From Candidatus Polarisedimenticolaceae bacterium (GTDB lineage: Bacteria; Acidobacteriota; Polarisedimenticolia; Polarisedimenticolales; Polarisedimenticolaceae), in contig JBFFZZ010000001.1 in the NCBI GenBank assembly GCA_041568335.1, positions 1-47,208 of the forward strand: a DNA stretch of 47,208 bases. The letters run 5' to 3'. Below, in pieces: positions 12,917 to 42,829 of this stretch. A program made the translations under genes and the position numbers. The stretch's first letter is position 1. Each line of letters starts with the position of its first letter. Below the pieces are notes generated by a model, which saw only the letters and a list, made by a program, of their open reading frames with translations, was not told the DNA's origin and did not search any database.

Positions 12917-12959
12917 CGTCCTCTCCTGTCGGGGTCAGGTCTTGAATCTTGCGTCGACT

Positions 12960-26163: not shown

Positions 26164-26480
26164 TCGGCGACCCCACCCCGAAACAGATCACCCCGTTCCC
26201 CAGCGGCGAGATCGGCATCGTCTGGTCCGACGGCCACGAGTCCTACTACGACCCCCATCGGTTGCGCTGCGCCTGCAGCTGCGCGCGTTGCGTCGACGAG
26301 ATGACCGGCCGCAAGGTCCTCGATGACGGCGGCGTGCCGACGGAGGTCCGCATCAAGGCGATCCACCCCGTCGGCAACTACGGTTACGGGATCGAGTGGA
26401 CCGACGGTCACGACACCGGGATCTACACCTTCAAGCACCTGCGCGAGCTTTGCGGCTGCGGCGAGTGCGGCGGATCCTAG
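26160..26480 (+). CDS. DUF971-family small protein (gamma-butyrobetaine-hydroxylase N-terminal-like, Cys-rich).
   Basis: IVWSDGHESYYDPHRLRCACSCARCVDE ... GNYGYGIEWTDGHDTGIYTF matches the DUF971 pattern as I remember it. ATGA overlap with the topA stop. Confidence 0.7.
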   Translation: MIGDPTPKQITPFPSGEIGIVWSDGHESYYDPHRLRCACSCARCVDEMTGRKVLDDGGVPTEVRIKAIHPVGNYGYGIEWTDGHDTGIYTFKHLRELCGCGECGGS

Positions 26481-26520
26481 ACCGCTCCCCTTTTCGGGCT
26501 CGCTGGACTATCCTCGGCGC

Positions 26521-28198: not shown

Positions 28199-30139
28199 AT
28201 GCGAGGCTCCGCGCATGCCGCGTCGGCGGTGGTGGTGGTCCTGATCGCCGGGCTATGGAACGCCACCGCGTTTGCGCAGGACGACGAAGACTGTCTCGCC
28301 TGCCATGACGAGATCGACCTCTTCGAGGGTTTCGATGACCCGGCCCGCCTGGTCGTCAGCGCGAAGCGGTACTTCGCGTCGTTGCACGCCGAGATGGGCT
28401 TGGCATGCATCGATTGTCACGTCGATCTGACCGGTCTCGGCGACTACCCGCACGCCGATTCTCTGGCGCCCGTCGATTGCGGCGTCTGTCATGCCGACAC
28501 GCAGGAGCTGTTCACCGGGAGCATGCACGGGTACGCTCTCGCGCGCGGTGACACCCAGGCGCCGACCTGCGCGAGCTGTCACGGCACTCACGACATCCGC
28601 TCCGCCTCGGACCCTGAATCGCCGACGCACGAGAGCCGCCTGCACGAAATATGCGCCTCGTGCCATGGGTCGGCGGGACGACTGACAAGAGAGATCGTCA
28701 GGTTTCCGGAAACCGTCGCCAGCTATGCCGCCTCGGTCCACGGACCATCCGACGGGGGCGTGGGCGCCGCCACCTGCGACGATTGCCACCATGTCCACGA
28801 GGTTCGTGGCGTCGCCGATCCGCAATCGCGAATCCACCGTGCAAACCTGTCGGCGACGTGTGGTGAATGCCACGACGACATCCGCATCGAGTACGAGCAG
28901 TCGATCCACGGCCGGGCGCTGCTGGCCGGGTTGCACGACAGCCCGACCTGCACGGACTGTCACGGCGAACACCTGATCCTGTCCCCTGGCGATCCCGATT
29001 CACTGGCCCACGCCAGCCGTCAAGCAACCGAGTCTTGCGGGAACTGCCACGACGACCCGGTGATCATCGCCAAGTACGGTCTGCGCGGCGACGTCGTCGG
29101 CTCGTACGTCGACAGCTATCATGGCTGGACGACTCGGCGCGGGTACGACCGCTCGGCGACGTGCGTGAGCTGTCATTCGGCGCATCGGGTGCTCCCGAGC
29201 ACGGACCCGCGGTCCACGGTGCACGCAGCCAACATCGTGGGGACATGTGGTCAGTGCCACAAGCTCGTCGACGAGGCCTTTGCAGCCAGCTACACGCACG
29301 AAAAGCTCTCGATCACGGCCAACCCGATCAATCGCTGGATCCGCGGAATCTACTGGGTCCTGATCACGGTCGTCATCGGTGGGATGGCCCTGCACAACCT
29401 GGTGATCCTCAACTTCCACGCCGTTCGTAAGAGGCGGGAGCTGGAAGCAGTCCAGACCGTGCGGCGCCTCGACGCATACCAGCTCGCGCAGCACGGCCTG
29501 ATGGCGCTCTCCTTCATCGTCCTCGCGATCACCGGCTTCGCCCTCAGGTACCCCGATGCCGGGTGGGTCGCCCTGCTGACGACGCTCGGCTTGGACGAAC
29601 CCTTGCGTGCCAACGTTCATCGCATCGCCGGCGTCGTGATGGTGATCGTCGCGGTCGTCCATGTGCTTTACGTCCTTCTCGTGCGGCGTGGACGGCGAGA
29701 GTTCCGGGCGATGGTCCCGTCTCGACGGGATTTTCGCGAGGCTGTGGACAACCTGCGGTACCACACCTGGGTACGTGACCGGCCTGCCGATTTCGGGCGC
29801 TACGACTACACGCAGAAGGCCGAGTACTGGGCCATCGTCTGGGGTACGGCGTTGATGGCGGTGACCGGCGCCGTGCTGTGGTTTCCCGCCCTGGCGGTGA
29901 AGCTCGTCCCGGCCTGGGTGGTGACCGCGTCGCAGACGATCCACTTCTACGAAGCCTGGCTCGCCGCCCTGGCGATCGTCGTCTGGCACTTCTTCTTCGT
30001 GCTGTTCCACCCCGATGTCTACCCGATGAGCTGGACCTGGCTTTCCGGGAAGGTGACCCGACGCTCGGTGGAACGGCACCACCCGCGTTGGTATCGCGAG
30101 GAGCTTGCGGACAAGCCGGCCGTGGCGGACGACGATTGA
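28199..30139 (+). CDS. Fusion of a periplasmic 11-haem c-type cytochrome with a C-terminal 5-TM cytochrome b domain (FdnI/HydC-type). CbcL-like inner-membrane quinol/quinone oxidoreductase candidate.
   Basis: Signal peptide, then 11 CxxCH motifs: CLACH, CIDCH, CGVCH, CASCH, CASCH, CDDCH, CGECH, CTDCH, CGNCH, CVSCH, CGQCH. These are followed by His-bearing TM helices (GGMALHNLVILNF, IAGVVMVIVAVVHVLYVLL, AALAIVVWHFFFVLFH). Confidence 0.8.
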   Translation: MRGSAHAASAVVVVLIAGLWNATAFAQDDEDCLACHDEIDLFEGFDDPARLVVSAKRYFASLHAEMGLACIDCHVDLTGLGDYPHADSLAPVDCGVCHADTQELFTGSMHGYALARGDTQAPTCASCHGTHDIRSASDPESPTHESRLHEICASCHGSAGRLTREIVRFPETVASYAASVHGPSDGGVGAATCDDCHHVHEVRGVADPQSRIHRANLSATCGECHDDIRIEYEQSIHGRALLAGLHDSPTCTDCHGEHLILSPGDPDSLAHASRQATESCGNCHDDPVIIAKYGLRGDVVGSYVDSYHGWTTRRGYDRSATCVSCHSAHRVLPSTDPRSTVHAANIVGTCGQCHKLVDEAFAASYTHEKLSITANPINRWIRGIYWVLITVVIGGMALHNLVILNFHAVRKRRELEAVQTVRRLDAYQLAQHGLMALSFIVLAITGFALRYPDAGWVALLTTLGLDEPLRANVHRIAGVVMVIVAVVHVLYVLLVRRGRREFRAMVPSRRDFREAVDNLRYHTWVRDRPADFGRYDYTQKAEYWAIVWGTALMAVTGAVLWFPALAVKLVPAWVVTASQTIHFYEAWLAALAIVVWHFFFVLFHPDVYPMSWTWLSGKVTRRSVERHHPRWYREELADKPAVADDD

Positions 30140-30143
30140 TCCG

Positions 30144-32054
30144 CTACCCGGCGAGCAGGTTTTCCAGCACCGCCCGTGACGCCTCCGCGTTGTGGTGGGC
30201 ACCGGCTTCGTCGAGGATCGCAAGGACCCCTCTCGCACGTTCGACCCACGCGTCGTCGCCCGACTGCTCGATACGTTCCAGCACCTGCCGGCGTAACGCG
30301 GCCAGCGCCGCGACGTTGTCGAGATGCATCGCCTCGTACGATCCGTCGTCCTCATGGCAGTCGGCGCAGGTCCCCAGTGCGACCTCTTGCGTGTGCGGCT
30401 CCGACGGATAGTGGCAGTCCTCGCAAGCCACGAGATCGGCCATGAAGTCCGGTTCGACATCGAAGGGATCCAACACCGGCAGCGTCGCCGATATCAGCCC
30501 CTGCTGGACCGCATGACAGCTGTCGCAGCCGTCGTTGACGGCGTTGGCCCCGCCGGAATGACACTGGCTGCAAAGCACGGCGTCGTGCGTTCCGTTCAGC
30601 GGCATCGCGTGCTCGAACTCACCGGTGTGGTAGGAGATCCGATCGCCGTCCCCATCGGGGATCAGGAAAGTGTGACACGATTCGCATTTGTCTGTGACCG
30701 AATCGCCGTACTGATTCACGTGCCGGTTGTCGTGGCAGCGAAAACAGCCGTCCGAGTACATGTGGCCGATGTTGTCGGGGTAGGTGGTCCAGTCGACCCG
30801 CATCTCGGAGAAGATGTTGCCGGAGTAGACCTCGCGGGTGGTGTCGATCGCCTGGTAGATCGAGGCGCGCCGCGACTCCCAGAGCTCCGGATAGTTTTCC
30901 CGGTAGAAGCCCGAGATACGCTCACCGATGCGGGCGAGGGCCTCATCGTCGGGGAGGTAGGGCGGGAGGATAGCCGCAACGGCCTCGCGTTTGATGAACG
31001 GCAACGTGCGGTCGATGCGTCCGTTGGTGATGGCTTGATCGATCGCTTCCTGCGGCGACAGGAACTCGTGGGCCGGACGGTTGTGACAGTCCATGCAGTC
31101 GATCTGGCGACGCTCGCCCCGCGGCGGCGGATCGGAGCTGGGCTTGCCGTCGGAGCGGTAGATCTGCGTTTCTCCGGTAGCATCGGTCCATGTGATCCAC
31201 TGGATATCTTGGAGTCTCTCGTCGGTGGCGATGTACTCGATCCGCGCGGTCAAAGCCATGTGGCTGTGGATACCCGAAGCACGGCCGAGAAACTCGTCGC
31301 CTCCCCCGGTCTTCAACAGCAGCACCACGGTTCGATCCGTGTTGTCCTCATCGGACGCATAGTGCGGGAACTCCCGCAGCTGTGAGCCGAAAAACTTTTG
31401 TGGCCAGTGGCATTCCTCACAGGTCTCCCGTGCCGGGCGAAGCTCGGTGATCGCCGGGGGGATCGGTCTGGGATAGGTCTCCCGAACGGTCGCTAGGACC
31501 TGGCGCAGTCCGGAGACCTTCGACTTGACGAACCAGCTCGCACCACTCCCGATGTGGCATTCGGCGCAGGGGACGCGGGCGTGGGACGACCGTTGGTAGG
31601 TCACCGCCTCGGGCTTCATGACGGTATGGCAGGTCGTCGCGCAGAACTCGGTCGAGTCGGTGAAGTGATAGCCGTGGTACCCGGTGACCGCGGTGACCGG
31701 TAGCAGCGCGAACAGTCCCAGACCGAGGTACTTCGCCACGCGCAGTTGCAGCGGGTCGCTGAAGTCGGGCCGGGGAAGCAAGCGCAGCTTTCGCTCGGGA
31801 TCCAGCCGGCGTCGGCGCCAGCTGCGGATCAGGATCCCGACGATCATCAGCGCAACACCGAACGTCAGGATTCCGGGGAGCACCAGATAGCCGACGATGT
31901 CGACATAGGGGTTCGGTACGGGCGAGACCAGACTGAACAGGCCGAAGGTGATCAGCAGGATCAACGCGACGGCGGCGAGCAACGTTCCCGCCAGCGTCAA
32001 CCAGTTGGTCCAGAGCGGTCGTGTAATCAGCGGATGTTTCGGGAGTTCACCCAT
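30144..32054 (-). CDS. Inner-membrane multihaem cytochrome with 3 N-terminal TM helices and a NapC/NirT-like first haem region (ImcH-like). It has 9 CxxCH motifs and 1 CX3CH motif.
   Basis: TM helices LTLAGTLLAAVALILLITFGLF, IVGYLVLPGILTFGVALMIVGILI, YLGLGLFALLPVTAVTGY. Haem motifs: CATTCH (CX3CH), CAECH, CEECH, CMDCH, CFRCH, CESCH, CSQCH, CDSCH, CEDCH, CADCH. SD AAGGAA lies before the ATG at 32054. Confidence 0.7.
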   Translation of the reverse strand: MGELPKHPLITRPLWTNWLTLAGTLLAAVALILLITFGLFSLVSPVPNPYVDIVGYLVLPGILTFGVALMIVGILIRSWRRRRLDPERKLRLLPRPDFSDPLQLRVAKYLGLGLFALLPVTAVTGYHGYHFTDSTEFCATTCHTVMKPEAVTYQRSSHARVPCAECHIGSGASWFVKSKVSGLRQVLATVRETYPRPIPPAITELRPARETCEECHWPQKFFGSQLREFPHYASDEDNTDRTVVLLLKTGGGDEFLGRASGIHSHMALTARIEYIATDERLQDIQWITWTDATGETQIYRSDGKPSSDPPPRGERRQIDCMDCHNRPAHEFLSPQEAIDQAITNGRIDRTLPFIKREAVAAILPPYLPDDEALARIGERISGFYRENYPELWESRRASIYQAIDTTREVYSGNIFSEMRVDWTTYPDNIGHMYSDGCFRCHDNRHVNQYGDSVTDKCESCHTFLIPDGDGDRISYHTGEFEHAMPLNGTHDAVLCSQCHSGGANAVNDGCDSCHAVQQGLISATLPVLDPFDVEPDFMADLVACEDCHYPSEPHTQEVALGTCADCHEDDGSYEAMHLDNVAALAALRRQVLERIEQSGDDAWVERARGVLAILDEAGAHHNAEASRAVLENLLAG

Positions 32055-32163
32055 CGATCGGATTCCTTGCTTGCATGACCCGGAGTCTAACCCGAACGGG
32101 GCTTAGACAGGGGGGTGCCTTCCTCGCAATATGCGCGGAAACGTGACAAACGGCTTTCGTAGT

Positions 32164-32505
32164 TTACCGGGTGTTCCTGAGCTCGACGAGCCAGGCCGCG
32201 ATCGCCTTCAGTTCCTCTTCGGTCCCCTTGAACTCCTTCTTGTGATCCTTGCCGTCGAGCTGGGTTTTGCGGCTGACGAATTGCTGGATCCAAGCCGCTT
32301 CCCGAGCCTCGTTGGGTAGGTCGGGTCCCTTCATCTTCTCCGACTTGACTTTGGCGACGATGTCCGCCTGTGGGACGGAGTGACACAGGTCGCATTTCTG
32401 CGCCGTGAAGGCCGCCAGCCCATCGCCCTCCGCGGCGACCGGGCCGCCGAAGATGAGGAGAATCACGGCTGTGGAACCAACGAGAAAGTGTGTCTTGGCT
32501 GACAT
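32164..32505 (-). CDS. Small monohaem class-I-like cytochrome c (signal/anchor sequence, Lys-rich).
   Basis: 113 aa with hydrophobic N-terminus LVGSTAVILLIFGGPVAA, a single CDLCH, and a candidate distal Met in KMKGPDL. SD GGAGG lies 8 nt upstream. Confidence 0.8.
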   Translation of the reverse strand: MSAKTHFLVGSTAVILLIFGGPVAAEGDGLAAFTAQKCDLCHSVPQADIVAKVKSEKMKGPDLPNEAREAAWIQQFVSRKTQLDGKDHKKEFKGTEEELKAIAAWLVELRNTR

Positions 32506-32613
32506 GTCCAGAACCTCCGAGATTTGCGATACGGGTCGTATCTTCAGAATACTTTGCGACCGGCTGTCGCTCCAGGAAAGCCTGGATTTCCGAGACCCTG
32601 TATCGGTTTTTGC

Positions 32614-34281
32614 TTAGGGCGCCGAGGAGAAACCACGGATCTTCAGCGCCAGTCCGATCAACACGGCGACGATGATGATGAGTGCGAGGGCCAGCCCCTT
32701 GCGGCGGTATTGAAGCTCCTCGAGCGCCGCGGCCCCGCTCTCCAGCGCCGCGCGGGCATGCTCCAGCCCTTCCGCGTGGGCTTTCATGAAATCGCCGTCC
32801 GGTGAAGGATCGAACGTGTGCACCAGGACCTGGAGATCGATCTGTGAATCGACCGTGCGATCGACGTATGCGCTCGCCTCGCGCGTCTCGACCCCGCCTC
32901 GACGCGCCACCAGCAGTGTCCGTTCGGCCTGTCCCGCCAACACGGTCAGCTCGCGGATCTTGTCCACGAACATGGACCCACCGAGACGGGGATCTCCCGA
33001 TGGATGGTGACAGGTTCCACAACGCCGCACGGCGGCACGAACCCTGCCGCTGCCGTTCGGGTTGTCGTACTCGTAGTAGCTCTTGCCGATGCGGAACTTC
33101 GAGTACAACCGCTCGAACTCGGGGCGCAGAACCGTCTCACTCTCGGATGCCCCCAGTCGATGGTTCGGAAGCTGGCGTGCACGATCGACGAGCCAGTCGA
33201 ACAGCTCGTCGTCCGCGATCCCGGCCTCCCCCGCCTCGGAGAGCAGGTCGGTGAAGACCTCGGCGTAGTTCTCGCGGCTCGCCAGCGGCTCGACCGACTC
33301 GCCGCCGTTCAGGTCGATCGACTCGTGACAGAACTCGCACGGGGATTGGGGCAGCCCCGAGAACATCGCCAGTGTCGGTCGGACGATGGCGTGGTTGTCG
33401 TGGCAGCTGGCGCATTCGACGAAGCTGCGGATCTGCAGATCGGCTTGTGGAGATTCGTGGCACGCCGCGCATCCCTCGTCCCCGGCGTCGGCCATGAGCT
33501 CGTTGTGCACCTCGAAGGCCTCGTGCTTGGGGCCCGACCGGAAGAGCTCCGCTTCCCGCCCATGGCACTGTCCGCAGACGAAGTCGACGGAATCGAGTCC
33601 CGGTGGCGCTGCGCCGTGATTGCCGTGACAGTCGTTGCACGTCGGTGCGCTGAGGTCCTCGCGGTCCAGCAGCGCGGCGGCATGGACACTGGTGCGCCAG
33701 CGAGCGTAGACATCGGTCGGGATCGGAAGACCCCCGGGACCCTTTCGTCCGGCCATCAGCTGCTGGTCGCCGTGGCAGACATTGCAGGTCTCCGCGACAC
33801 GGGTCGGGTGGACGCTCGAGTCGGGGCTCGAGACTTTGCGCGTCGAGTGCACCGTGTGGCAGTCCGTGCAGACGGCAACCTCCATGTCTCCGCGTGCCAG
33901 CGCTATGCCGTGCTGGCTGGTCCAGTACTCGCTCTCCTGATCGACGCGCGGTGCGGGGTTGAAGCGGCGCATGAGGACGGGATTCGAGTGGCAACGACCG
34001 CACAGGGCCGGGATCTCGTTTCGCGCAGGCGCACCGATAAACGTCTCGTCCTTCGCGTCGAGTTCCTCGGCAAGCTCGGGAGCGGGGTTGCCGCCATGGC
34101 AGTCGTGGCACGAGAAGCCGGCCTCGGCGTGGATATCCAACGCGTAGCCCTGCACGACAGCCGGGTCGGCTCCGAAGAGCTCCTCGTTCGCGTGGCACAA
34201 GGTGCACGAGGTCTCCTCCACCCCGCCCGGTGTCACGGGCAAGATCGCAAGCAAGGCCAGCGCAACGGTGGGTGCCTTCAT
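32614..34281 (-). CDS. 11-haem c-type cytochrome with a C-terminal membrane anchor. Candidate third subunit of the Rieske/cyt b complex.
   Basis: Signal peptide, then CTLCH, CHDCH, CGRCH, CTDCH, CNVCH, CNDCH, CGQCH, CAACH, CASCH, CEFCH, CGTCH. C-terminal [22 protein letters not shown]. The start ATG overlaps the cyt b stop (ATGA at 34278-34281). Confidence 0.85.
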
Positions 34282-35441
34282 CGCTCACCTCGGTCACGCG
34301 GTCGCGTGATCCAGCCGAAGCCCGCCAGTGCCAGAATCGCCCCGCCGACAAGGAACACGGGAACCGGGGACCGGTAACCCCAGGCCGTCATGACAACCAT
34401 GTACACAACGACAACCGCACCGATGATCGTGAACCCCGGACTCTTGCCCTTGCGGGCCAAGCCACGGTCGAGGAACGGCACGAGCAGGAGGACGAGTGCC
34501 CCGATCCCGAACCCCATGATGGGGATGGCCTCATACTCGATGCCCAGGATTTCACCGCCAGGCACGAGTTTCAACGTCTCGAACATGAACATGAAGTACC
34601 ACTCGGGCCGGATGTCCTGGTAAGCCGGTGCGAACGGATCGGCCTTGACGCCCAGCTCCCAGGGGAACAGCGCCGCCACGGCAGCGAGCACCCCGAGCGC
34701 CAGCACCCAACCGAACAGGTCTCGCAGGGCGAAATCGGGGAAGAACTTCATGGGGCGGTTGCGCTTCGACCGTTGTTCGCTCGCGGGCGGGACGCTCATC
34801 CCCTGAACCTGGACCAGCACGAGGTGCAGACCCAGCAAGATCGTCGTTATCGCCGGTAGGATCGCCACGTGCCAGCCGTAGAACCTCGACAGCGTTCCGC
34901 CGGTCACGCGTTCTCCGCCGCGCAGGAACTCGAGCAGCCACTCACCGACGAACGGGACCGACCCGGCGATATCGGTGCCGACCAAGGTGGCGAAGTACGC
35001 GAGTTGGTTCCATGGCAACAGGTAGCCGGAGAAGCCGAACGCCATCACCAGGAACAGCAGGACGCAGCCGCTGATCCAGGTCATCTCACGCGGCTTGCGG
35101 TAGGCCTTGACGAAGAAGACGGTGCCCAGGTGGAGGAAGGCGAAGAAGACCATCAGGTTCGCGGCCCACGAATGGACCGAGCGAATCAGCCAACCGAACG
35201 GGACCGTGGTCATGATGAACTCGACGGACTCGAACGCCTCTTCGGCGGAAGGCCGGTAGTACAGCATCAACAGGATCCCGGTCACGACCTGCACGATGAA
35301 GAAGAACAGGGTCATGCCGCCGAGGTAGTAGAAGACGGTGTAACGGTGCTGTGGAACGGTCTTGTGCCGGGCAAACTCGGCGAGCCTGTCCAGCGCGACA
35401 CGCTGTTGCAACCACGCCCCGATCGTCTCGACGGGCTTCAC
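34278..35441 (-). CDS. Cytochrome b of a Rieske/cyt b complex (b6-like N-terminal part fused to a subunit-IV-like part).
   Basis: Helix B haem ligands are H-x13-H ([17 protein letters not shown]). Helix D ligands are H-x14-H ([17 protein letters not shown], the b6-type spacing). The Qo-site motif PEWYF is present. GTG start with GAGGA upstream. Confidence 0.92.
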
Positions 35442-35444
35442 GGC

Positions 35445-35912
35445 TCAGGTCCTCGAGATGACGATCTGCGCCGGTTGCCCGGACCCGCGGGCGACGAGGT
35501 CGACGCGAAACGGCGCTAGCGGCCGTGGGGGCGGCCCGGCAACCTGGTGGCCCTGGAGGTTGTACTGGCCGTTGTGGCAGTTGCACCAGATGCGTCGCTT
35601 GTCCCGCCGATACTCGACGATACAGTCGAGGTGCGTGCAGGTGCCGGCGAAGGCGCGGAAATCGCCGTCGGCGACCCGGATCACGATCACGGGCTCGCTC
35701 CCGAAGCGGACGATCTTGTATCCCTTGTCGAGCAGCTCCGGATCGTTGGTAAACCCCGCCTCGACCTGGTTGGTCCCGGAATCGGGTATCTCCGGCGGAC
35801 TGACGAAGCGCAGTACCGGGTAGGCGATCGAGGCGAACAGCGCGCCGAATGATGTCGCCAAGAACCAGTTGAGGAAACTTCGACGGTCGCGTGGTCTTTG
35901 AGACTGGCTCAC
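35445..35912 (-). CDS. Rieske [2Fe-2S] protein with a Tat signal.
   Basis: Twin-arginine RDRRSFLNW followed by a TM helix. Cluster boxes CTHLDC and CNCHNG. The start is uncertain. The track's TTG at 35966 lies inside the T-tract of the upstream terminator and upstream of the only SD. The GTG at 35912 overlaps the stop of a short SD-preceded uORF (see findings). Confidence 0.85.
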   Translation of the reverse strand: MSQSQRPRDRRSFLNWFLATSFGALFASIAYPVLRFVSPPEIPDSGTNQVEAGFTNDPELLDKGYKIVRFGSEPVIVIRVADGDFRAFAGTCTHLDCIVEYRRDKRRIWCNCHNGQYNLQGHQVAGPPPRPLAPFRVDLVARGSGQPAQIVISRT

Positions 35913-35961
35913 GGTTCTGGGCGTCTTCCGAGAATCACAAAACGCATCATACCCTCCTCTG

Positions 35962-35997
35962 GACAAACAAAGGGACCGGCGTCATCCGCCGGTCCCT
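35962..35997 (-). terminator. Strong intrinsic-terminator-like hairpin (11-bp perfect GC-rich stem, 5-nt loop) followed by TTTGTTTGT on the minus strand, directly after the 990-aa cytochrome gene.
   Basis: Plus strand: AGGGACCGGCG-tcatc-CGCCGGTCCCT (35971-35997), preceded by gacaaacaa. This gives the U-rich tail on the minus-strand transcript. Confidence 0.7.
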
Positions 35998-36022
35998 TCC
36001 CAGTGACACACACCCACCCGCC

Positions 36023-38995
36023 TTACCTTTCGATGGCGCGGCGAGTCTTCGACGGCTTGACTTGCCAGCTGCTGAGCGTGTTCGGCCGATCTCGGTTGAA
36101 CTCCTGGATCCGCATGCCCGGATTGAGCGAGACCAGCGCATCCCGCGACGCGATCAGCGCGCCGTTGGCGAAAAACGGATTGTGCACGCCGTGGCTGCCG
36201 TCGTTGTGGACCAGGGCCAGGTTCCAGCCGGACTTGAGGAGATCGTCGTGCGCGAACCCGGCCAGGGAACCCAGGACGGTCATCGACCCGTCGAGCACGT
36301 CGATATCCGGGATCCGGTGGGGTCCGGAGACCGACGTGTCGGTGAACGTCACCGTCAGGGCCTGACGTCCGCGGGACTCGCCGAAATGAACTTCCGCGAC
36401 ATCCGCCGCGTCGACGATCGTGGCATCCCCGTTGAGGTCGATCGTGTTCCCGGCGGCGATCAGGTCCTCGAACAGCCGAACGTAGGCGTCCTCCACCAGA
36501 TCCTCGACGATATCCGCCAGATGATCGATCGCCCCCTGCACGTCGTCGGGGTCGAGGTGCGGGCTGTGACAATCGGTACAGATGTTGCGGTCGGCGTAGA
36601 ACGTGTGGTTCGTTCCGCCACCGTTGTACGCGAGGACGTCGGGAGGAGGTGTCGACTCCATGTGGCAGGTGACGCAAACATCTTCGATGCCGGCGTGGCC
36701 ACCCGGAGAATCGACCGCGACGAAGTAGGCGTTCTGGCCCGCGATCATGTCGGCCTGAGCCGATCCATGAGGCGCGCGCGCCTTCTCGGAAGCCGAAAAC
36801 GTGTCCCAGATGCCGTCGTTGCGTTCCCCGCGCCGCGAGTTGTGGCAGGTCATGCAGATGGCCCCGCGCCCGGCGTCGGTGAACGTGAAGCCGGCGATCA
36901 GCGGCGGCGTGTCGCCGCTGATCCGCACCGTCGCGTTCGGATCGGATCCGCTCGTCGTGCCACTGGCGTGCGGATCGTGGCACGTGGCGCAGGTTTGCGG
37001 GTGCGCCTCGTCCTCGGTCCACGTGACCGTGACGCTGGCCAGCGGATCGGTCATCGGGTCGTCGTCGAGCAGAACCGGCAACCACTCGAGGAAGCCGTTG
37101 GCCGTGTGACAGCGCGAGCAGCTACCGCTGGTACTCCTTTCGATCGCCAGCTCGTAGTTGGCGTGCGGGCTGAGCTGCCACTGCTGGAAACGGGCGTGCC
37201 GCAGCGGCTCGCCGTGGCACGTCGCGCAGACATCGGCGGAGAGGTCGATGCGCGGCTCACCCACCGGTCCGGCGAACCCGTGAGCGAGCGAACTCTGCGG
37301 ACCGTGACAGTTCTCGCACTGGACGTTCGCCTTGCGCGCGGTTTGCGGCGTCTGCGCGAGCGCGTTGCTCCAGTTGTCCGGCTGCGGGTTACCCAACATC
37401 GTGAGGAACGTGCTGTAATCGTCGGCTTCGTCGATGCCGAGATTGTCGTCCTCGGGGTTGTAGCCCACGGTATGACAGCTGAAGCATTGGGTTCCCCAGT
37501 AGGCGCTGGAGTTGAAGTTGTCGGTGAAGATCTCGGCGTGACCGGTCTGGGCCCAGTCGGTGAACTTGTCCGGCGCGAACATGTCGTTGTGGCAGAACGT
37601 ACATGCGGTATCCGCGACCGGTCTGCCGTCCATGTCCTCGTCGACGATCACGCCACGCCACTCCCCGGCATAGACCTCCAGCGTCGCCGGGTTCCCCGCG
37701 CCCTCGGCCGCGTCCGCGAGCTCGAGCTCGTAGAGGCCTGGAACGTCGGGGGTGAAGTGGGGCCAGCGCGTCGTCGCGTCATTGAGCGTGGCCGCCGAGC
37801 CGGCCGGCGCATTCAGCGTCCAATCGTAGGCCGTATGCTCCTTGGCCTGAACCAGCACCGGTACGTTGATCGGCACGTTGCGCAAGCCGGTGGACCACTC
37901 CCACGGCAGATCCGTGTGGATCTCGACCTCGTCGGTAAAGATACCCAGATCGGTGTCGACCTCGACCTCGAGCACAACAAGCACCGTTTCCTCCAGGGAC
38001 CATGGGTTGATCCCGACGACCTGCATCCGATCCTGCAGGCCTCCGAAGGACCCGTGGGGAGGGATCGTGACGTTGGGCGGGAGCTGGTCCTGGGTCACGA
38101 TGGGTTCCTCTAGGTGGTCGATCAGCCCCGTCTTGTAGGCGCCCCCGTCCGCGAGCGTCACCGTGGCGGTATCCGTGTTGCCGTTGGCGATGGCGACGGT
38201 CTCACCGTAGGTCTGCGTCCAGGTGATCGAGTTGATCGTCGCCGTCGGTGGTGCGGTGATGTCCACCGTCGCCGTGACGATCCCGCCGGGGAACATATTC
38301 CCGGATACGCTCGCCTCGACCATGACGGGGACCGTCGGCAACAGCGCAATGTCGAGATTGCTGATCGGCGTCCCGGCCGTCACCGTCACGCTCTGCGCCT
38401 GAGTGGTGTAACCCGCGAACGAGTACGCAAACGAGTAGGTTCCGGGATTCAGCTGTCCCGAATAAGTGCCCGACGCGTTGGTCGTTGCGAAGTTGGATCC
38501 CTGAACCGTGACCGTCACGCCGGGGATCGGGTTGCCCGTCAGGCTGTCCGTGACGATCCCGGAGACGGTGACCAGGTTCGAAACGACCGCAGATCCCGTC
38601 AGGTAGGCGTTGAATCCACCGCTGCCGGAATCGCCGCCGATCTCCGCATAGTAGGTCCCGGCAGCCGGTAGGGTGAACACATGGGTCAAGTTGCCCATGC
38701 CCAACCAGCTGATGGAGCGCGTCATTCCCGGCACGACCATGCCGCCCGAATCGCGAATCACGGCGGTCGGGACGAGTGTCGAACCCGGCGCGGCCTGCAC
38801 GGTGAGCGTCACCGTTTCGCCGCCCGCAGCCAGGAAACGGCCCTGAACCAAGTCGACACCCGCGGTGTCGATCGTTCCCGAAAATCGGTCGCCGAGCCCG
38901 GTGTCGACGATCGTCTGTGAAAAAGTCATGGGGCTGATCAAGAGCAGCACAAGCGCACTCAGCCCTGCAGTCAACCAAACTCCTCCGTTCTTCAT
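36023..38995 (-). CDS. 990-aa secreted 9-haem c-type cytochrome with about 330 aa of N-terminal non-haem beta-sandwich domains (pre-peptidase-C-terminal-like and carboxypeptidase-regulatory-like).
   Basis: Signal peptide WLTAGLSALVLLLISPMTFSQ. A CarboxypepD_reg-like segment VSGIVTDSLTGNPIPGVTVTVQGSNFATTNASGTYSGQLNPGTYSFAYSFAGY. Haem motifs: CTFCH, CFSCH, CENCH, CATCH, CSRCH, CATCH, CMTCH, CVTCH, CTDCH. SD GGGAGG lies 5 nt before the ATG. Confidence 0.85.
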   Translation of the reverse strand: MKNGGVWLTAGLSALVLLLISPMTFSQTIVDTGLGDRFSGTIDTAGVDLVQGRFLAAGGETVTLTVQAAPGSTLVPTAVIRDSGGMVVPGMTRSISWLGMGNLTHVFTLPAAGTYYAEIGGDSGSGGFNAYLTGSAVVSNLVTVSGIVTDSLTGNPIPGVTVTVQGSNFATTNASGTYSGQLNPGTYSFAYSFAGYTTQAQSVTVTAGTPISNLDIALLPTVPVMVEASVSGNMFPGGIVTATVDITAPPTATINSITWTQTYGETVAIANGNTDTATVTLADGGAYKTGLIDHLEEPIVTQDQLPPNVTIPPHGSFGGLQDRMQVVGINPWSLEETVLVVLEVEVDTDLGIFTDEVEIHTDLPWEWSTGLRNVPINVPVLVQAKEHTAYDWTLNAPAGSAATLNDATTRWPHFTPDVPGLYELELADAAEGAGNPATLEVYAGEWRGVIVDEDMDGRPVADTACTFCHNDMFAPDKFTDWAQTGHAEIFTDNFNSSAYWGTQCFSCHTVGYNPEDDNLGIDEADDYSTFLTMLGNPQPDNWSNALAQTPQTARKANVQCENCHGPQSSLAHGFAGPVGEPRIDLSADVCATCHGEPLRHARFQQWQLSPHANYELAIERSTSGSCSRCHTANGFLEWLPVLLDDDPMTDPLASVTVTWTEDEAHPQTCATCHDPHASGTTSGSDPNATVRISGDTPPLIAGFTFTDAGRGAICMTCHNSRRGERNDGIWDTFSASEKARAPHGSAQADMIAGQNAYFVAVDSPGGHAGIEDVCVTCHMESTPPPDVLAYNGGGTNHTFYADRNICTDCHSPHLDPDDVQGAIDHLADIVEDLVEDAYVRLFEDLIAAGNTIDLNGDATIVDAADVAEVHFGESRGRQALTVTFTDTSVSGPHRIPDIDVLDGSMTVLGSLAGFAHDDLLKSGWNLALVHNDGSHGVHNPFFANGALIASRDALVSLNPGMRIQEFNRDRPNTLSSWQVKPSKTRRAIER

Positions 38996-39050
38996 CGTTG
39001 CCTCCCGGCCGGGGCCAGCCGGGGCGGCTGCCCCGTTCCTTACGCAAGGA

Positions 39051-39079
39051 ATTCTAGGGATTTTTTTGGCTCTTGATCA
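39051..39079 (-). promoter_or_regulatory. Candidate sigma-70-type promoter for the 990-aa cytochrome gene (TGATCA-N17-TAGAAT with an upstream A-tract).
   Basis: The minus strand reads tgatca-agagccaaaaaaatccc-tagaat. The -10 is 5/6 to consensus and the -35 is weak. It is followed by a GC hairpin (GGGGCAGCCGCCCC) in the leader. Confidence 0.25.
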
Positions 39080-39267
39080 CTGCGGAAACCCGTCACGGAG
39101 GCGCGCCAGACATAAGGGTATCCCCGTGCATCGCAGTCGCTTAGCGTGTGTGACAATAACCTACCGACAGCAACGGGTGCTCCGCGCTCGGCTCGGTAAC
39201 CGGACACAACAAACAAAGTCAACGCGAGTCTCGGCGCACCTTGAGCTTTCATGTGGAGGGTAGCCGG

Positions 39268-39873
39268 ATGAACACGAAACGATTGGCGATCGGATGCGCG
39301 GCGGTGCTGTTCCTGGCGGGACTTCTGTGTCCTGCTGCCGCCGAGAAAGGCGACAAGTTTGTGAGGTTCGGCGTCCTCTACAGCATGCCGACGGACGACT
39401 TCACGATGGGGACGCAGACGACCGAGCTGGACGAATCGGTCGGGTTTCAGGCCTCGTTCGAGTACCAGCTTTCCGATCTCATCGGAATCGAGCCGGGGGT
39501 CAGCTCGGGAAGCTACGACCTGACGGTCGTGGAGCCCGGGTTCGCCGACGTGAACGGCGACACGCAGCTGTTCGCCGTCACGACGAACCTCAACTTTCAC
39601 TTCCGGAAGGACAGCGGGCTGGATCTCTCGGTCGGGCCGACAATCGGGTACGCCTTCTGGGATGACATCACGTTGTCCGGGTTCGCGACGCCGGTGACGA
39701 CCGACGACGAGTTCCTGTTCGGCGCGAGCATCGCGCTGGCCTATCCCTTCGGCGACGGTGGCTGGGGCTTCAACGCGGGCCTGAGCTACCTCGCCCTGGA
39801 CGTCACGCCGCCCGGTGGCGCCATCGGGGTGAGCCCGGTCCAGGGGAAGGTCGGCCTCAGCTACGCCTTCTGA
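39268..39873 (+). CDS. Small 8-10-strand outer-membrane beta-barrel protein (OmpW/OprG-like size class).
   Basis: 201 aa with signal peptide LAIGCAAVLFLAGLLCPAAA, alternating-hydrophobic strands and the C-terminal signature GLSYAF (terminal Phe). SD GGAGGG lies 7 nt before the ATG at 39268. Confidence 0.75.
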   Translation: MNTKRLAIGCAAVLFLAGLLCPAAAEKGDKFVRFGVLYSMPTDDFTMGTQTTELDESVGFQASFEYQLSDLIGIEPGVSSGSYDLTVVEPGFADVNGDTQLFAVTTNLNFHFRKDSGLDLSVGPTIGYAFWDDITLSGFATPVTTDDEFLFGASIALAYPFGDGGWGFNAGLSYLALDVTPPGGAIGVSPVQGKVGLSYAF

Positions 39874-39901
39874 CTTTCCGCACAGGCGCTTCCAGACCAA
39901 T

Positions 39902-39936
39902 GGAGCCGCTCCCTCGGGAGCGGCTCCGCTTTATTT
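39902..39936 (+). terminator. Rho-independent terminator (11-bp perfect stem, 4-nt loop, T-rich tail) between convergent genes.
   Basis: GGAGCCGCTCC-ctcg-GGAGCGGCTCC followed by gcTTTATTT. It lies 28 nt after the OMP stop codon. Confidence 0.8.
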
Positions 39937-39953
39937 GGCCCTGTCGGCGGAAT

Positions 39954-42005
39954 CTAGAAGCGCAGCCCCGCACGAACCACAACGTGGTTGCCGTCATAGT
40001 CGAGCAGGTCATTCACGTCGTCGTAGTCAAAGTGACGGTAGGCACCGCCAACGCGCAATCCGCTTTCGAACGTGTAGCTGACACCGACCTCGGAATCCAT
40101 GTACTCCTGCATGATGACCAGGTTGTTGAGCACCGACGGCGTCGGCAACGTGAGGTCGATCACGTTGTTGAATCCGTCCGCCTCGATGCTCGAGGCCATC
40201 ACGTAGCAGTGCCAGGCGTCGCGCCGGTAGTCCAGCCGACCGAGGATCTGCGAATTGTCGTTGAGGAAGTCGGAAGATCCGGGTGCGACCGCACCAAAAC
40301 CCGCCGTATCGAACAGGATCGCGGTCGACCCGTCGACCTCGGTGTCGGTGTAACGCAGCAGGTAGCTCACGTTGTCTCCCGCCGCGTGTGTCCAGTCGAC
40401 CGACCAGGCCGTCCCGTCGACCGTCGAGTTGTTGTCGATCGCCGGAGGGACCGGGCGGATGTTCGGTGAAATGTTCTCGTTGTCCCAGTTGCGGTAGGTC
40501 GCGTTGAAACGCATGCCCTGGCGCGGGGTGACCGTGGCGCGAAACCGCGTCTGCGTCTTCATGAAGTGCGATACGTTGGTGAACGCCATGTCCATTTCAC
40601 CATCCTCGAAATCTGCGGACAGTCGCAACCAGCGCGCCGGTCTTGCGGTCAATCCCAGGATCAGCGTGTCGTCGTTGTCCGAGTCGAAGTTGGTGTCCCG
40701 GACACCGCCGTAGCCGCTGCGTTCGAGACTGCGCGACATCGTGCGGTAGCCGGCGCGAACGCGGACCTGCCGGTGCGGCTGGTAGTCCAGCAAAGCGGTG
40801 ATCGTGTCGACCTCCTGGTCGAACCGGGTCACGCTTCCGGGTGTCGCGTCGCCATCGAGGTCCTCGAACGTGCCGTCGCCGTCGAGATCCCGATCGAGCG
40901 TCCCGTCCAGCTCGCGGTTGTAGCTCTTGTAGCTGAGGTGCGCCGTCAGCGGAGCCGCGATGCGAATGGCGGCGTCGAATTCGACGATCATCGTGTCGCC
41001 ATCGAGGCGTGCCGTCGAGATCCCGGTGTCGGCGACGCACACGTCGCCGGCCGTGATCGCATCACAGGTGGCGTCGTTGCTGCACGTGGCACCGCTGATC
41101 GCGCAGGTCCCGCCGAACTCGAGTCCGTTGAACGCGATCCCGAGTTGCTCGACGGTGACGTCGGACGTGATCTCCTCGTCCCCGAGCAGTGTACCCGCGG
41201 CGGATAGCGTCAAGGCGACTCGTTTCGTCACCGGTGCCTGCAGGATCAACGTGGTCCAATCCTGCTCGGTATTGTCCCGTTGCATCCAGTGGTAGCTGTC
41301 GAGCTGCGTCGCGTTGGAAAGATCAATGCCCAGATCACCCTCGGTTTCCTGGACGATGTTGTTGGTGTAGTCGTTGAGCGCCTGGCGAAAGACCAGGTTG
41401 ACCTTGCCCAGCTTGGCGTCGACCCCGACCGTCAGGCCCTCGCTTTCGGCATCCAGAGGGGCCTCGAGCCGGAACACATCGCGGCTGACGTCTTTCATGA
41501 AGAGCGAATCTCCACTTCGTCGGTTGTTGCGGTACTGCACGACGGCGGACACCTTTTCTGTTGCGTGGATCCTCAGGCTCAACAGGTCGCGCCGCCGCTC
41601 GGCGTCCCAGGCCGCTCCATCCTCGTTGTCGACCAGTTCAAAAAGGTTGTACATGTAGTCCTGTTTGGTGGAGGTGAAGCGCAGATCCCAACGGTCCTTC
41701 TTGCCCAGTTTGAATGCGCTTCGCTGGTAGGGCTCGGAGCCGCCGAAGCCTTCGAGCTCGATGCGCGCGAAGTCGACCCAGTCGCTCGACTCGTTTAGCC
41801 ACCCGACATTCAACCGATCGACGTAGGTTCCCGACGATTGTCCGTCGAAGTCTTCGTCGTACTTCCGCTGCTCGCCATCGACGTTGACGTTGCGATGGGC
41901 CAGTTCGATCTCACCCTCGATCTGGCCTTCGCCGTCCGCGTGAGTCGTCGGGAGCATGAGCAGGAGACCGGCGAACACGGCTAGGTAGGCGGTGTATCGC
42001 ATCAT
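39954..42005 (-). CDS. 683-aa outer-membrane beta-barrel. Candidate MtrB/PioB-like sheath of a porin-cytochrome conduit.
   Basis: Signal peptide MMRYTAYLAVFAGLLLMLPTTHA. Long runs of alternating beta-strand pattern with Y/R/D-rich turns. The C-terminus is VVRAGLRF. The start ATG (42005-42003) overlaps the TGA of the decahaem gene (ATGA). The size matches MtrB/PioB-type barrels. Confidence 0.65.
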   Translation of the reverse strand: MMRYTAYLAVFAGLLLMLPTTHADGEGQIEGEIELAHRNVNVDGEQRKYDEDFDGQSSGTYVDRLNVGWLNESSDWVDFARIELEGFGGSEPYQRSAFKLGKKDRWDLRFTSTKQDYMYNLFELVDNEDGAAWDAERRRDLLSLRIHATEKVSAVVQYRNNRRSGDSLFMKDVSRDVFRLEAPLDAESEGLTVGVDAKLGKVNLVFRQALNDYTNNIVQETEGDLGIDLSNATQLDSYHWMQRDNTEQDWTTLILQAPVTKRVALTLSAAGTLLGDEEITSDVTVEQLGIAFNGLEFGGTCAISGATCSNDATCDAITAGDVCVADTGISTARLDGDTMIVEFDAAIRIAAPLTAHLSYKSYNRELDGTLDRDLDGDGTFEDLDGDATPGSVTRFDQEVDTITALLDYQPHRQVRVRAGYRTMSRSLERSGYGGVRDTNFDSDNDDTLILGLTARPARWLRLSADFEDGEMDMAFTNVSHFMKTQTRFRATVTPRQGMRFNATYRNWDNENISPNIRPVPPAIDNNSTVDGTAWSVDWTHAAGDNVSYLLRYTDTEVDGSTAILFDTAGFGAVAPGSSDFLNDNSQILGRLDYRRDAWHCYVMASSIEADGFNNVIDLTLPTPSVLNNLVIMQEYMDSEVGVSYTFESGLRVGGAYRHFDYDDVNDLLDYDGNHVVVRAGLRF

Positions 42006-42829
42006 TCCTCCAGGAAGTACGGGCTCGTGTTGGAGCCGTGGATGGCCGTGTGGCAGGCGGTGCACTTCTCGTTCAGGAACCGCGGCGCGCTGTGCCAGAC
42101 GGGTGTGACACTCGCGGAGTGACACTGATAACAAAGGTTGACTTGCGTCTCGTAGGTCAACAGGTGGCGGTTGGTGGAGCCGTGGACCGTGTGACAGGTC
42201 GAGCAACCGTCCATCAAGGCGACGTCGTGCGCGTAGACGTATGGGGCCATCTTCTCGGTGTGACAGTCGCCACAGGTCTGGTTCGCCAGGGTCGTGTTGG
42301 TCCGCAGGGAATCGGTACCATGGGGGTTGTGACAACCGGTGCAATCCTCGGCCGGATGCGAACGGGGCATCCCGAACTGCGCCACGATCCCCTGGTGGCA
42401 ATCGGCACAGAGTTCCGGAGGCCGCTTGGTGAGCATCTGATCCGCGGCCGCGTGCGGGTCATGGCAATCCTGGCAGGTGACATCGGCCAGTCGGTGCAAT
42501 GCCCCGGCGGCGCGGAAGTGCGAGGCCTGCTCGGTGTGGCAGTCCAGGCACTGTTGCGAGGCCTCGCGGGGGGGCAGCAGCGCGGGGCGAATGATCGAGT
42601 CAAGCTCGCCTCCGCTGTCCATGTGCTCCTGGCCGTTGCCGTGGCATGCGCTGCACGAGGTCTCGTGAACCCAGCCCTTCGCTGTGGCGTGCGGGGTCTT
42701 GGCAAACTCGGCCACGGTTTCCTCATGGCAGGCAGCACACTCCTCCGCGGGTGGCCCGGTGTCCTCGGCCGGCGTCGACGCCGAGAACACCAGGAACAGA
42801 AACAAGAGAACGAAATAAGTTCGTCGCAT
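42002..42829 (-). CDS. Periplasmic decahaem c-type cytochrome of the MtrA/DmsE/PioA/MtoA type.
   Basis: 275 aa with signal peptide FVLLFLFLVFSASTPA and 10 CxxCH motifs: CAACH, CSACH, CLDCH, CQDCH, CADCH, CTGCH, CGDCH, CSTCH, CYQCH, CTACH. Local patterns parallel Shewanella MtrA as I remember it: CTGCHNPHG vs CSDCHNPHG, C..CH.EK..P...H, and the terminal CTACHTAIHGSN vs CLNCHSQVHGSN. The ATG at 42829 follows AGAGG. Confidence 0.8.
   Translation of the reverse strand: MRRTYFVLLFLFLVFSASTPAEDTGPPAEECAACHEETVAEFAKTPHATAKGWVHETSCSACHGNGQEHMDSGGELDSIIRPALLPPREASQQCLDCHTEQASHFRAAGALHRLADVTCQDCHDPHAAADQMLTKRPPELCADCHQGIVAQFGMPRSHPAEDCTGCHNPHGTDSLRTNTTLANQTCGDCHTEKMAPYVYAHDVALMDGCSTCHTVHGSTNRHLLTYETQVNLCYQCHSASVTPVWHSAPRFLNEKCTACHTAIHGSNTSPYFLEE

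Follow-up and report, generated by a model that had tools for sequence, protein, structure and literature searches.

In Geobacter, the choice among ImcH, CbcL and CbcBA, three exits from the quinol pool, sets growth yield, and the tiering of the three by potential has been demonstrated (bioRxiv 10.1101/2021.04.15.440034). Gene arrangements that bear on such systems have already been published, namely CbcL, MtoC or MtrH genes clustered with mtrAB or mtoAB (PMC6295460), a Rieske/cytochrome b/multihaem cluster beside a Geobacter conduit (extHIJKLMNOPQS/Cbc6; PMC5877670; bioRxiv 10.1101/2021.04.15.440034), and porin-cytochrome clusters in marine and peat Acidobacteriota (PMC8528874; 10.64898/2026.05.27.727921). 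Zhong and Shi, in 2018, explicitly found no ImcH-type genes next to mtrAB-type genes (PMC6295460). Here we describe a 14.6-kb island of cytochrome genes (positions 28199-42829) within a 47,208-nt stretch of a Candidatus Polarisedimenticolaceae bacterium genome (GCA_041568335.1, contig JBFFZZ010000001.1, positions 1 to 47,208; hereafter, the window), in which ImcH-like, CbcL-like and Rieske/cytochrome b modules stand beside an MtrAB-like conduit and an OcwA-like nonahaem cytochrome. We put at roughly 55% the probability that this island encodes a modular trans-envelope wire, in which alternative quinol oxidases feed one conduit and electrons run outward. The locus makes testable the question of how energy is conserved when the acceptor is outside the cell.

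Each part of the island is of a known kind; what appears to be new, in the literature that we searched, is the company that the parts keep. ImcH-type genes stand beside mtrAB-type genes; ImcH-like, CbcL-like and Rieske/cytochrome b genes are co-clustered with an MtrAB-type conduit across Acidobacteriota classes; and an OcwA-like nonahaem, not one of the MtrC family, would be the partner of an MtrAB-type conduit. Of the novelty that the initial annotation, made from the sequence alone, had seen in the locus, the CbcL/mtoAB and Rieske/conduit clusters were already in print; a description of the full supercluster was not found, in a search of incomplete coverage whose silence is absence of evidence only.

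Gene content of the island

All ten island genes were reproduced from the list of open reading frames (ORFs) and their translations, and the six cytochrome genes carry 51 CXXCH motifs and one CX3CH, giving the total of 52 haem-binding motifs (11 + 10 + 1 + 11 + 9 + 10) that the initial annotation had counted. Shuffled versions of the six cytochromes held a mean of 0.23 motifs and a maximum of 3, and 24 other window ORFs (10,429 residues) held 0 CXXCH. The GC content at third codon positions (GC3) of the island ORFs is uniform and of coding type (0.77-0.87; genome 65% GC). Domains were assigned by Pfam and NCBIfam scans of the window proteins against curated cutoffs, and AlphaFold (AF2) models of the 683-aa barrel and the 990-aa protein were compared by Foldseek; with motif and transmembrane evidence added, every component class named earlier for the island is present.

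The conduit consists of a periplasmic decahaem cytochrome and an outer-membrane beta-barrel. The decahaem (42002-42829, minus strand; 275 aa, 10 CXXCH, N-terminal signal sequence) is of MtrA/DmsE type: it scores 184.6 bits against TIGR03508 (DmsE family) over model positions 3-257 of 258, narrowly missing the cutoff of 192.2, and it aligns end to end with MtrA (PDB 6R2Q_A; E 3e-26), so that by alignment its homology to MtrA is clear. Its stop codon overlaps the start codon of the barrel gene (39954-42005, minus strand) by 4 nt (ATGA), which bears out the translational coupling proposed for the pair. The 683-aa barrel is identified by fold alone, because all sequence searches gave nothing: no match was found in Pfam, in NCBIfam or in the PDB (by phmmer with the single sequence or with a 20-sequence profile), and none to the MtrB_PioB model PF11854 even at E <= 1, a model that is detected in 2/20 barrel homologues (best E 6.6e-7). 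The AF2 model (predicted local distance difference test (pLDDT) score 83) has ~26-27 long strands, and its top Foldseek match is MtrB itself (6R2Q_B; E 1.9e-14, TM-scores 0.61/0.64), the remaining fold matches being TonB-dependent receptors at ~0.40.

Judged by sequence, the barrel is a divergent family of its own: a search of 5.8 billion proteins gave 24 close homologues, and one of 1.84 billion gave 600 cluster representatives at E <= 1e-3. The barrel has its homologues in Acidobacteria bacterium Mor1, Ca. Polarisedimenticola svalbardensis and related metagenome-assembled genomes (MAGs). The decahaem and barrel genes adjoin in 13/13 loci in which the barrel has a close homologue (L001-L012 and L094; L numbers designate related loci). 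An MtrAB-like assignment of the pair is thus supported for the cytochrome by sequence and for the barrel by modelled fold, and the 683-aa barrel is predicted to be the sheath of the decahaem. The barrel family also has a conserved four-Cys loop (TC..G..C..DA.CDA..GDVCV; residues ~290-322, window ~41040-41140, minus strand), which forms a small structured insert in the AF2 model. The MtrB of metal-reducing Gammaproteobacteria has an N-terminal CXXC in place of such a loop.

What, then, might receive electrons from this conduit? The candidate for the terminal surface cytochrome is a secreted 990-aa nonahaem (36023-38995, minus strand; 9 CXXCH, ordinary signal peptide) in which ~5 beta-sandwich domains at the N-terminus are followed by a 9-haem domain and then, at the C-terminus, by a helical bundle that holds a beta-sheet insert (helices 816-847 and 917-957, beta strands 851-910 in an AF2 model of pLDDT 77). 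A profile of its 36-sequence family finds OcwA (6I5B_A) and OmhA (6QVM_A) as best PDB matches, at E 3.2e-5 and 3.5e-5 (structure identities from PMC6703420 and PMC9250108), with segments that are collinear along the haem domain; octahaem and pentahaem nitrite reductases rank next, and no MtrC, OmcA, UndA or MtrF match was found in the PDB. These matches would place the protein in the NrfA/ONR/MccA/OcwA superfamily. Foldseek with the whole model is dominated by Ig-like surface proteins that match the N-terminal domains. Membership in the MtrC family was considered and rejected on the nine haems, the absence of a lipobox Cys and the missing PDB profile match; PF22113 scores 47.5 bits, over only ~100 aa. 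The earlier statement that the island lacks an MtrC/OmcA-type gene therefore holds by family and misleads on function, given a nonahaem whose nearest solved relatives are OcwA and OmhA and whose family occupies the mtrC position, just 5' of the decahaem gene, in L003, L009, L011 and L094; in the window and in L097 the gene is adjacent to the decahaem-barrel pair.

The nine CXXCH motifs and nine further His are invariant in 36 homologues of the nonahaem, and these His appear to suffice for bis-His ligation of all nine haems. Conserved distal His-His motifs at two penta-coordinate haems are a feature of the OcwA/OmhA clade (PMC6703420, PMC9250108). The nonahaem has no HH dipeptide and no CXXCK, and since it lacks His-His pockets of the OcwA type it may be a pure electron-transfer protein. 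Its closest homologue (P0026, labelled Acidobacteria bacterium) is 79% identical. The C-terminal ~730 aa are found at 45-58% identity in well over 100 metagenome proteins (P0026-P0144), whose labels include Acidobacteriota, Phycisphaerae and Betaproteobacteria; at the N-terminus the domains differ from one protein to another (CarboxypepD_reg, PKD-like). Multihaem cytochromes of the outer surface are not usually so well conserved. Divergently paired with the nonahaem gene, here and in L003, L009, L011, L094, L096 and L097, is the gene of a small, 201-aa outer-membrane beta-barrel (39268-39873, plus strand; PF13505 (OMP_b-brl), 42.5 bits).

On the inner-membrane side, a Rieske protein, a cytochrome b and an anchored 11-haem cytochrome form a conserved trio that is, on the evidence of its sequences, a bc-type complex. 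The Rieske 2Fe-2S subunit (35445-35966, minus strand, with a TTG start at 35966 or alternatively at 35912) matches PF00355 (48.8 bits, above cutoff) and PetC-type NCBIfam models, and has a twin-arginine signal/anchor (RRSFLNWF) and the cluster ligands CTHLDC...CNCH. In the second Rieske box a Gly takes the Ser position, which would fit a lower-potential cluster of the menaquinol type. The cytochrome b (34278-35441, minus strand; ~8 transmembrane helices) is a fusion of b6-type and subunit-IV-type parts (PF00033, 177.7 bits; PF00032, 36.9 bits; both above cutoff) with H-x13-H and H-x14-H ligands, the Qo motif PEWY and no Cys for haem ci; against NCBIfam it stays below cutoff for both cytochrome b6 (228, cutoff 325) and ExtP (225.5, cutoff 290). 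The 11-haem subunit (32614-34281, minus strand; 11 CXXCH) carries a signal peptide and, towards the C-terminus, a membrane anchor at residues 530-548. Downstream lies a 113-aa monohaem class-I cytochrome c (32164-32505, minus strand; 1 CXXCH, signal peptide; PF13442 at 21.8 bits, below cutoff), a candidate soluble periplasmic shuttle. Its homologues stand beside the bc trio in L013 and beside the decahaem gene in L001, L004, L005 and L006, so that its earlier assignment to the bc complex proved not to be specific. An MtoD-like identity was rejected in its turn, as the PDB gave no MtoD match and only insignificant c551 matches (E ~0.5).

The other two quinol modules are single polypeptides. The 646-aa protein (28199-30139, plus strand) has the CbcL/MtoC/MtrH architecture, and is assigned by that architecture: a signal peptide, a periplasmic domain with 11 CXXCH and a 5-helix transmembrane b domain of FdnI/HydC type (PF01292 (Ni_hydr_CYTB), 70.4 bits, residues 430-605; TIGR01583, 79 bits, below cutoff). 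Its 11-haem domain (28199-29350) is paralogous to the 11-haem subunit of the bc complex (28% identity, E 4e-22); the two paralogues are built from internal repeats, the same haem wire being carried on two different quinol-oxidising membrane domains. ImcH proteins are marked by three transmembrane helices, an atypical CX3CH near the last of them, a NapC/NirT-like region and 5-9 CXXCH (PMC6295460), and the 636-aa protein (30144-32054, minus strand) has all of these hallmarks. Its helices span residues 25-43, 58-76 and 106-124, the CX3CH lies at residue 138 just after the third, PF03264 (residues 120-193) and TIGR03153 mark a NapC/NirT/NrfH-like region within residues 120-216, and its 9 CXXCH stand at the top of the published range. 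The NCBIfam scan gave no match to an ImcH-family-specific model, and the assignment is by hallmarks.

The layout of these genes indicates at least four transcription units and not one operon: decahaem-barrel; small outer-membrane protein; nonahaem-Rieske-cytochrome b-11-haem-monohaem-ImcH; and the CbcL-like gene, convergent with the last, with 4 nt between the stop codons of the CbcL-like and ImcH-like genes. The Rieske and cytochrome b genes are separated by 3 nt, and the cytochrome b and 11-haem genes overlap by 4 nt. Between the convergent small-barrel and large-barrel genes lies a GC-rich hairpin with a perfect 12-bp stem (39901-39928), the strongest terminator-like site and intergenic, which is likely to be a bidirectional terminator for both. 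The operon structure is drawn from gene spacing and this one strong hairpin because the promoter and terminator scans were uninformative: no sigma-70-like sites were found in the region, and terminator-like sites were overall not more numerous than in shuffles. The island holds all the parts needed for a path from quinol to surface, as the initial annotation had it, and neither the island nor the rest of the 47,208 nt holds a gene for a terminal oxidase or reductase, or genes for carbon fixation.

Recurrence in related genomes

The combination of modules seen in the island is a recurring supercluster in Polarisedimenticola-like and Blastocatellia contigs. The genes of L094 are, in order, small outer-membrane protein (divergent), 995-aa nonahaem homologue, decahaem, barrel, cNMP-binding protein, Rieske, cytochrome b, multihaem and ImcH-like; the cytochrome b there is only 30% identical to that of the window, and this recruitment of a different bc lineage to the same neighbourhood points to a functional rather than a merely historical linkage. 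The L094 cNMP-binding protein (564 aa; 16014-17708 of that locus), encoded between the barrel and Rieske genes, is a possible regulator. In L087, all genes run in one direction: decahaem, barrel, Rieske, cytochrome b, multihaem, two more multihaems, CbcL-like and ImcH-like. By hhalign, its barrel is a remote homologue of the window barrel (probability 98.8%, E 1e-16). A Pyrinomonadaceae (Blastocatellia) MAG encodes a protein with 100% identity to the L087 barrel, whose subfamily numbers at least 1,394.

At least 569 relatives of the 11-haem subunit turned up when metagenome contigs were scanned, and among the 80 best of these loci, Rieske and cytochrome b genes precede the 11-haem gene wherever the flank allows. 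Thirteen trio loci have flanks of at least 5 kb upstream and 7 kb downstream; 12/13 of them hold at least one further island module, 8/13 a decahaem, and 5/13 the decahaem, the barrel, a CbcL-like and an ImcH-like gene together. Linkage of modules and conduit is thus frequent and not obligatory, the trio being found also with no conduit nearby (L014, L023) and the nonahaem family likewise (L093, L023). A survey of related MAGs had been suggested with the initial annotation; in it the gene mix recurs and the linkage is conserved. The idea of a Geobacter/Shewanella hybrid as a one-off did not survive, since the combination recurs in L087, in L094 and in the long-flank loci; a unique hybrid is ruled out by its presence in many independent contigs. 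Gene content, domain and fold identities and conserved linkage are matters of observation.

How is such a locus put together? In the window, the island is flanked by topA, GBBH-like and PMT_2 genes on one side and by UPF0158, Alr and DUF4097 genes on the other. In L005 (topA 83% identical), the same site holds only a monohaem c, the decahaem, the barrel and a 197-aa NapC/NirT protein. L097 repeats the window order DUF4097-Alr-UPF0158-decahaem-barrel-small outer-membrane protein-nonahaem at 66-84% identity, and L013 repeats Rieske-cytochrome b-11-haem-monohaem at 64-88%. L004 has a split CbcL-like pair with the decahaem and barrel, and L008 has the decahaem and barrel with an ImcH-like and several CbcL-like genes. 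In L096 (1707-8310), a NrfD + Fe-S + c7 module, a monohaem c and a two-component system lie between the barrel and the small outer-membrane protein, and L095 (5831-8092) has a conduit cluster of Blastocatellia type with an ImcH-like gene, no bc complex and a divergent qNOR-like gene beside it. The locus is a hot spot: its decahaem-barrel core is invariant, and the inner-membrane modules around it are exchanged.

The conduit cluster also occupies alternative genomic sites in related genomes. In L003, the small outer-membrane protein gene, the gene of a 1006-aa nonahaem homologue, the decahaem and the barrel (L003 5227-12088) lie at a different site, between genes for an M14 peptidase and DeoC; in the window the M14 peptidase-DeoC junction (12916-12960) is an empty 43 bp, and the conduit is 23 kb away beside topA. 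The L003 barrel is 38% identical to that of the window, against 61-87% for housekeeping proteins.

Some further genes of the window deserve mention. A multihaem protein is encoded outside the island (5278-7326, minus strand; 682 aa, 7 CXXCH, C-terminal TPR domain), beside a tRNA-Trp gene (5194-5270, plus strand) that was the only hit of Rfam and tRNA scans of the window; in L003 a TPR protein is encoded at the equivalent position next to a thiolase gene. A membrane glycosyltransferase of the PMT_2 family (ArnT-like; 26323-28050, plus strand) is encoded between the GBBH-like and CbcL-like genes and is absent there in L005. A 1204-aa protein (1295-4909, minus strand) combines thrombospondin type-3 repeats with a metallophosphatase domain like that of purple acid phosphatases, and a THAP4/nitrobindin-like haem-binding beta-barrel protein is encoded at 46044-46550 (plus strand).

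Direction of electron flow and rival readings

How might the parts work together? In our preferred reading, the ImcH-like, CbcL-like and Rieske/cytochrome b modules would be three alternative (mena)quinol:cytochrome c oxidoreductases that draw on the quinol pool, and their 10-11-haem periplasmic chains and/or the monohaem c would pass electrons to the MtrA-type decahaem. The decahaem, threaded through the MtrB-fold barrel, would hand the electrons on to the OcwA-like nonahaem at the surface, perhaps held there by the paired small outer-membrane protein, and the final acceptors could be Fe(III)/Mn(IV) oxides, humic or particulate organic matter, or electrodes. The three modules would most likely serve as gears for different windows of acceptor redox potential and different energy yields, by analogy with Geobacter, where ImcH, CbcL and CbcBA have been shown to be tiered in this way; the Rieske/cytochrome b complex, being capable of a Q cycle, would then be the most energy-conserving route, for use with high-potential acceptors. 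Physical contacts between the parts, the location of the nonahaem, the outward direction and the potential tiering are what we infer from the genes.

We agree with the initial annotation that the direction of electron flow cannot be read from the sequence. Outward flow is favoured because quinol oxidation is the only role in which ImcH has been implicated to date (PMC6295460), because the large secreted multihaem in the mtrC position resembles the terminal reductases OcwA and OmhA (PMC6703420), and because related Acidobacteriota are predicted or known metal-oxide reducers, Ca. Polarisedimenticola and Thermoanaerobaculum among them, with syntenic clusters of cytochrome and barrel genes (PMC8528874).

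A number of observations pull the other way. The gene set of L005 is MtoD/MtoAB/CymA-like and typical of Fe(II) oxidisers, a monohaem class-I cytochrome with a Rieske/cytochrome b complex is classically high-potential and oxidase-linked, and many carriers of the locus (Blastocatellia, Mor1) belong to lineages known as aerobes. A surface location of the nonahaem is left in question by its ordinary signal peptide, by its lack of a lipobox and by its CarboxypepD_reg-type domain, a kind that SusC-type transporters have on their periplasmic side; the match to OcwA and OmhA is weak (E ~3e-5) and comes without their His-His pockets. For the conduit, the decahaem falls just below the trusted cutoff of the DmsE family and the barrel fails the MtrB/PioB sequence model. 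The division of the island into several transcription units, and the occurrence of the trio with no conduit nearby, also count against a single wire.

We think it unlikely that the electrons flow inward, in an MtoAB/PioAB-like oxidation of Fe(II), Mn(II) or a reduced solid or partner outside the cell, with the monohaem c leading to an oxidase or N-oxide reductase encoded elsewhere and the Rieske/cytochrome b complex and/or the CbcL-like protein reversed to reduce quinone. The parts list of L005 is that of mtoD-mtoAB-cymA in Sideroxydans (list from PMC10654088), CbcL homologues (MtoC) of Fe(II) oxidisers are thought reversible (PMC6295460), an uphill bc1 is known in Acidithiobacillus (PMC10654088), and a class-I monohaem c with Rieske/cytochrome b is typical of high-potential chains; moreover, the related cluster in L095 lies beside a qNOR-like gene and Ca. 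Polarisedimenticola is predicted to respire O2 and nitrate (PMC8528874). However, that same lineage is predicted to be heterotrophic (PMC8528874) and the window holds no carbon-fixation or oxidase genes, the monohaem c finds no MtoD by sequence in the PDB, and ImcH-type proteins have been tied so far only to quinol oxidation. The 990-aa nonahaem that is tightly associated here has no counterpart in known MtoAB and PioAB systems, in which no large extracellular partner occurs. It is also improbable, in our view, that the modules are separate, with the Rieske complex, the ImcH-like and the CbcL-like proteins serving periplasmic or soluble acceptors (N-oxides, sulfur compounds, selenite/tellurite), the 990-aa protein a periplasmic enzyme and the MtrAB-like pair one of several outlets. 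Such an arrangement would suit the several transcription units, the Rieske trio that is also found alone, and the 990-aa family, which is unusually conserved across phyla (50-58% identity over ~730 aa), occurs away from conduits in L093 and L023 and belongs with NrfA/ONR/MccA/OcwA superfamily members that reduce nitrite or hydroxylamine in vitro (PMC6703420); the Geobacter ext cluster, too, has been tied to selenite/tellurite reduction (PMC5877670). Yet in the 990-aa family a conserved second His appears to be present for each of the nine haems, and neither CXXCK nor the His-His pocket typical of catalytic haems is present (PMC9250108). In L003, L009, L011 and L094 the 990-aa gene lies just upstream of decahaem-barrel, in the window and in L097 it is a neighbour of that pair, and the modules adjoin across distant classes, even with non-orthologous Rieske/cytochrome b genes, which argues for a functional link.

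That the island is an assembly artefact, joining contigs of different organisms, is hardly credible. Its GC content (0.62-0.65) is slightly below that of the left flank (0.65-0.69), but both flanks are syntenic with L005 and L097, codon GC3 is uniform, L097 repeats decahaem-barrel-small outer-membrane protein-nonahaem while L013 repeats Rieske-cytochrome b-11-haem-monohaem, and L094 and L087 hold the same combination in single long contigs; a chimera is ruled out by the synteny with L005, L013 and L097.

Returning to the outward wire with its alternative quinol oxidases, we tentatively advance a more specific idea, which we regard as possible and no better than that: an Acidobacteriota 'complex III for minerals', in which the Rieske/cytochrome b complex and its anchored 11-haem wire would be tied to the MtrAB-type conduit and the OcwA-like nonahaem, conserving proton-motive energy with high-potential solids, or running in reverse in Fe(II) oxidation or electron uptake, with the ImcH-like and CbcL-like proteins as lower-yield gears for lower-potential acceptors. 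The reach of such a complex would extend over several Acidobacteriota classes, including the abundant Blastocatellia and marine Polarisedimenticola-like lineages. That these modules cluster with an MtrAB-type conduit across great evolutionary distances, even when the bc genes are non-orthologous, leads to the hypothesis that a Q cycle is coupled to extracellular electron transfer, and it would make widespread, mostly uncultured Acidobacteriota possible respirers of metals, humic substances or electrodes. The extracellular partner of an MtrAB-type conduit, moreover, need not be of the MtrC family, a point of consequence for gene-marker tools that report 'MtoAB-type, iron oxidation' whenever mtrC is absent.

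Comparison with described systems

The island shares with MtrCAB of Shewanella (6R2Q) an MtrA-homologous decahaem coupled to an MtrB-fold barrel of ~680 aa and, in the relatives of the window, a large multihaem gene directly upstream, as mtrC is. It differs in a barrel that has a four-Cys loop and neither the MtrB/PioB sequence signature nor the N-terminal CXXC, in a nonahaem partner of the NrfA/OcwA superfamily with N-terminal beta-sandwiches and no lipobox, and in quinol dehydrogenases that are encoded in the same locus and are not CymA. Proteins of the MtrC/OmcA/UndA/MtrF family are lipoproteins with ten or eleven haems in two pentahaem and two beta-barrel domains, unlike the 990-aa protein. 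Comparable too are the MtoAB-MtoD-CymA/MtoC systems of Sideroxydans, Gallionella and Dechloromonas, PioAB, and MtrH of Rhodoferax, in which a decahaem and barrel are found with a monohaem c and a NapC/NirT- or CbcL-type cytochrome (PMC6295460). Those systems belong to Proteobacteria, run inward in Fe(II) oxidisers and, in contrast to the island, have one quinol/quinone module and no Rieske/cytochrome b, ImcH or large extracellular partner.

The nearest solved relatives of the nonahaem, OcwA of Thermincola potens and OmhA of Carboxydothermus ferrireducens, are cell-surface terminal reductases for solids in Gram-positive hosts, whereas the host of the window is diderm. The 990-aa protein has nine CXXCH as OcwA does (OmhA has eleven haems), collinear matches that include the C-terminal 'dGS.GvHN' helix, and a predicted C-terminal helical bundle with a beta-sheet insert as in both; unlike them, it adds ~460 aa of N-terminal beta-sandwiches, and it has no His-His pockets and probably no penta-coordinate catalytic haems. 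Among Acidobacteriota, MAG clusters of multihaems and barrels have been proposed to reduce metal oxides or organic matter (Flieder et al. 2021, PMC8528874; peat preprint 10.64898/2026.05.27.727921), and L009 is the Ca. Polarisedimenticola svalbardensis MAG of PMC8528874. The texts of PMC8528874 and 10.64898/2026.05.27.727921 do not describe the linkage to Rieske/cytochrome b, ImcH-like and CbcL-like genes or the OcwA-like nature of the large cytochrome; in the preprint (10.64898/2026.05.27.727921), Rieske, ImcH, CbcL and 'cytochrome b' are mentioned zero times.

Geobacter offers parallels for the inner-membrane modules. The extHIJKLMNOPQS cluster (the ExtHIJKL conduit with Cbc6, which comprises the Rieske protein ExtO, the cytochrome b ExtP and 10-/12-haem cytochromes) likewise places bc genes beside an outer-membrane porin-cytochrome cluster, and the bc part of Cbc6 is itself uncharacterised in function. 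The window differs in a cytochrome b that is a b6 and subunit-IV fusion scoring below the ExtP cutoff, and in a conduit of MtrAB type where the ext conduit has the porin ExtI with a rhodanese and a selenoprotein. As in G. sulfurreducens with its ImcH, CbcL and CbcBA, several exits from the quinol pool of ImcH, CbcL and bc type are present, the likeness being one of architecture, with 10 haems against 7 for the ImcH type and 11 against 9 for the CbcL type. In Geobacter, however, these genes are unlinked and feed conduits of the Pcc/Ext type, whereas in the island and on many Acidobacteriota contigs they stand side by side, next to a conduit of the MtrAB type.

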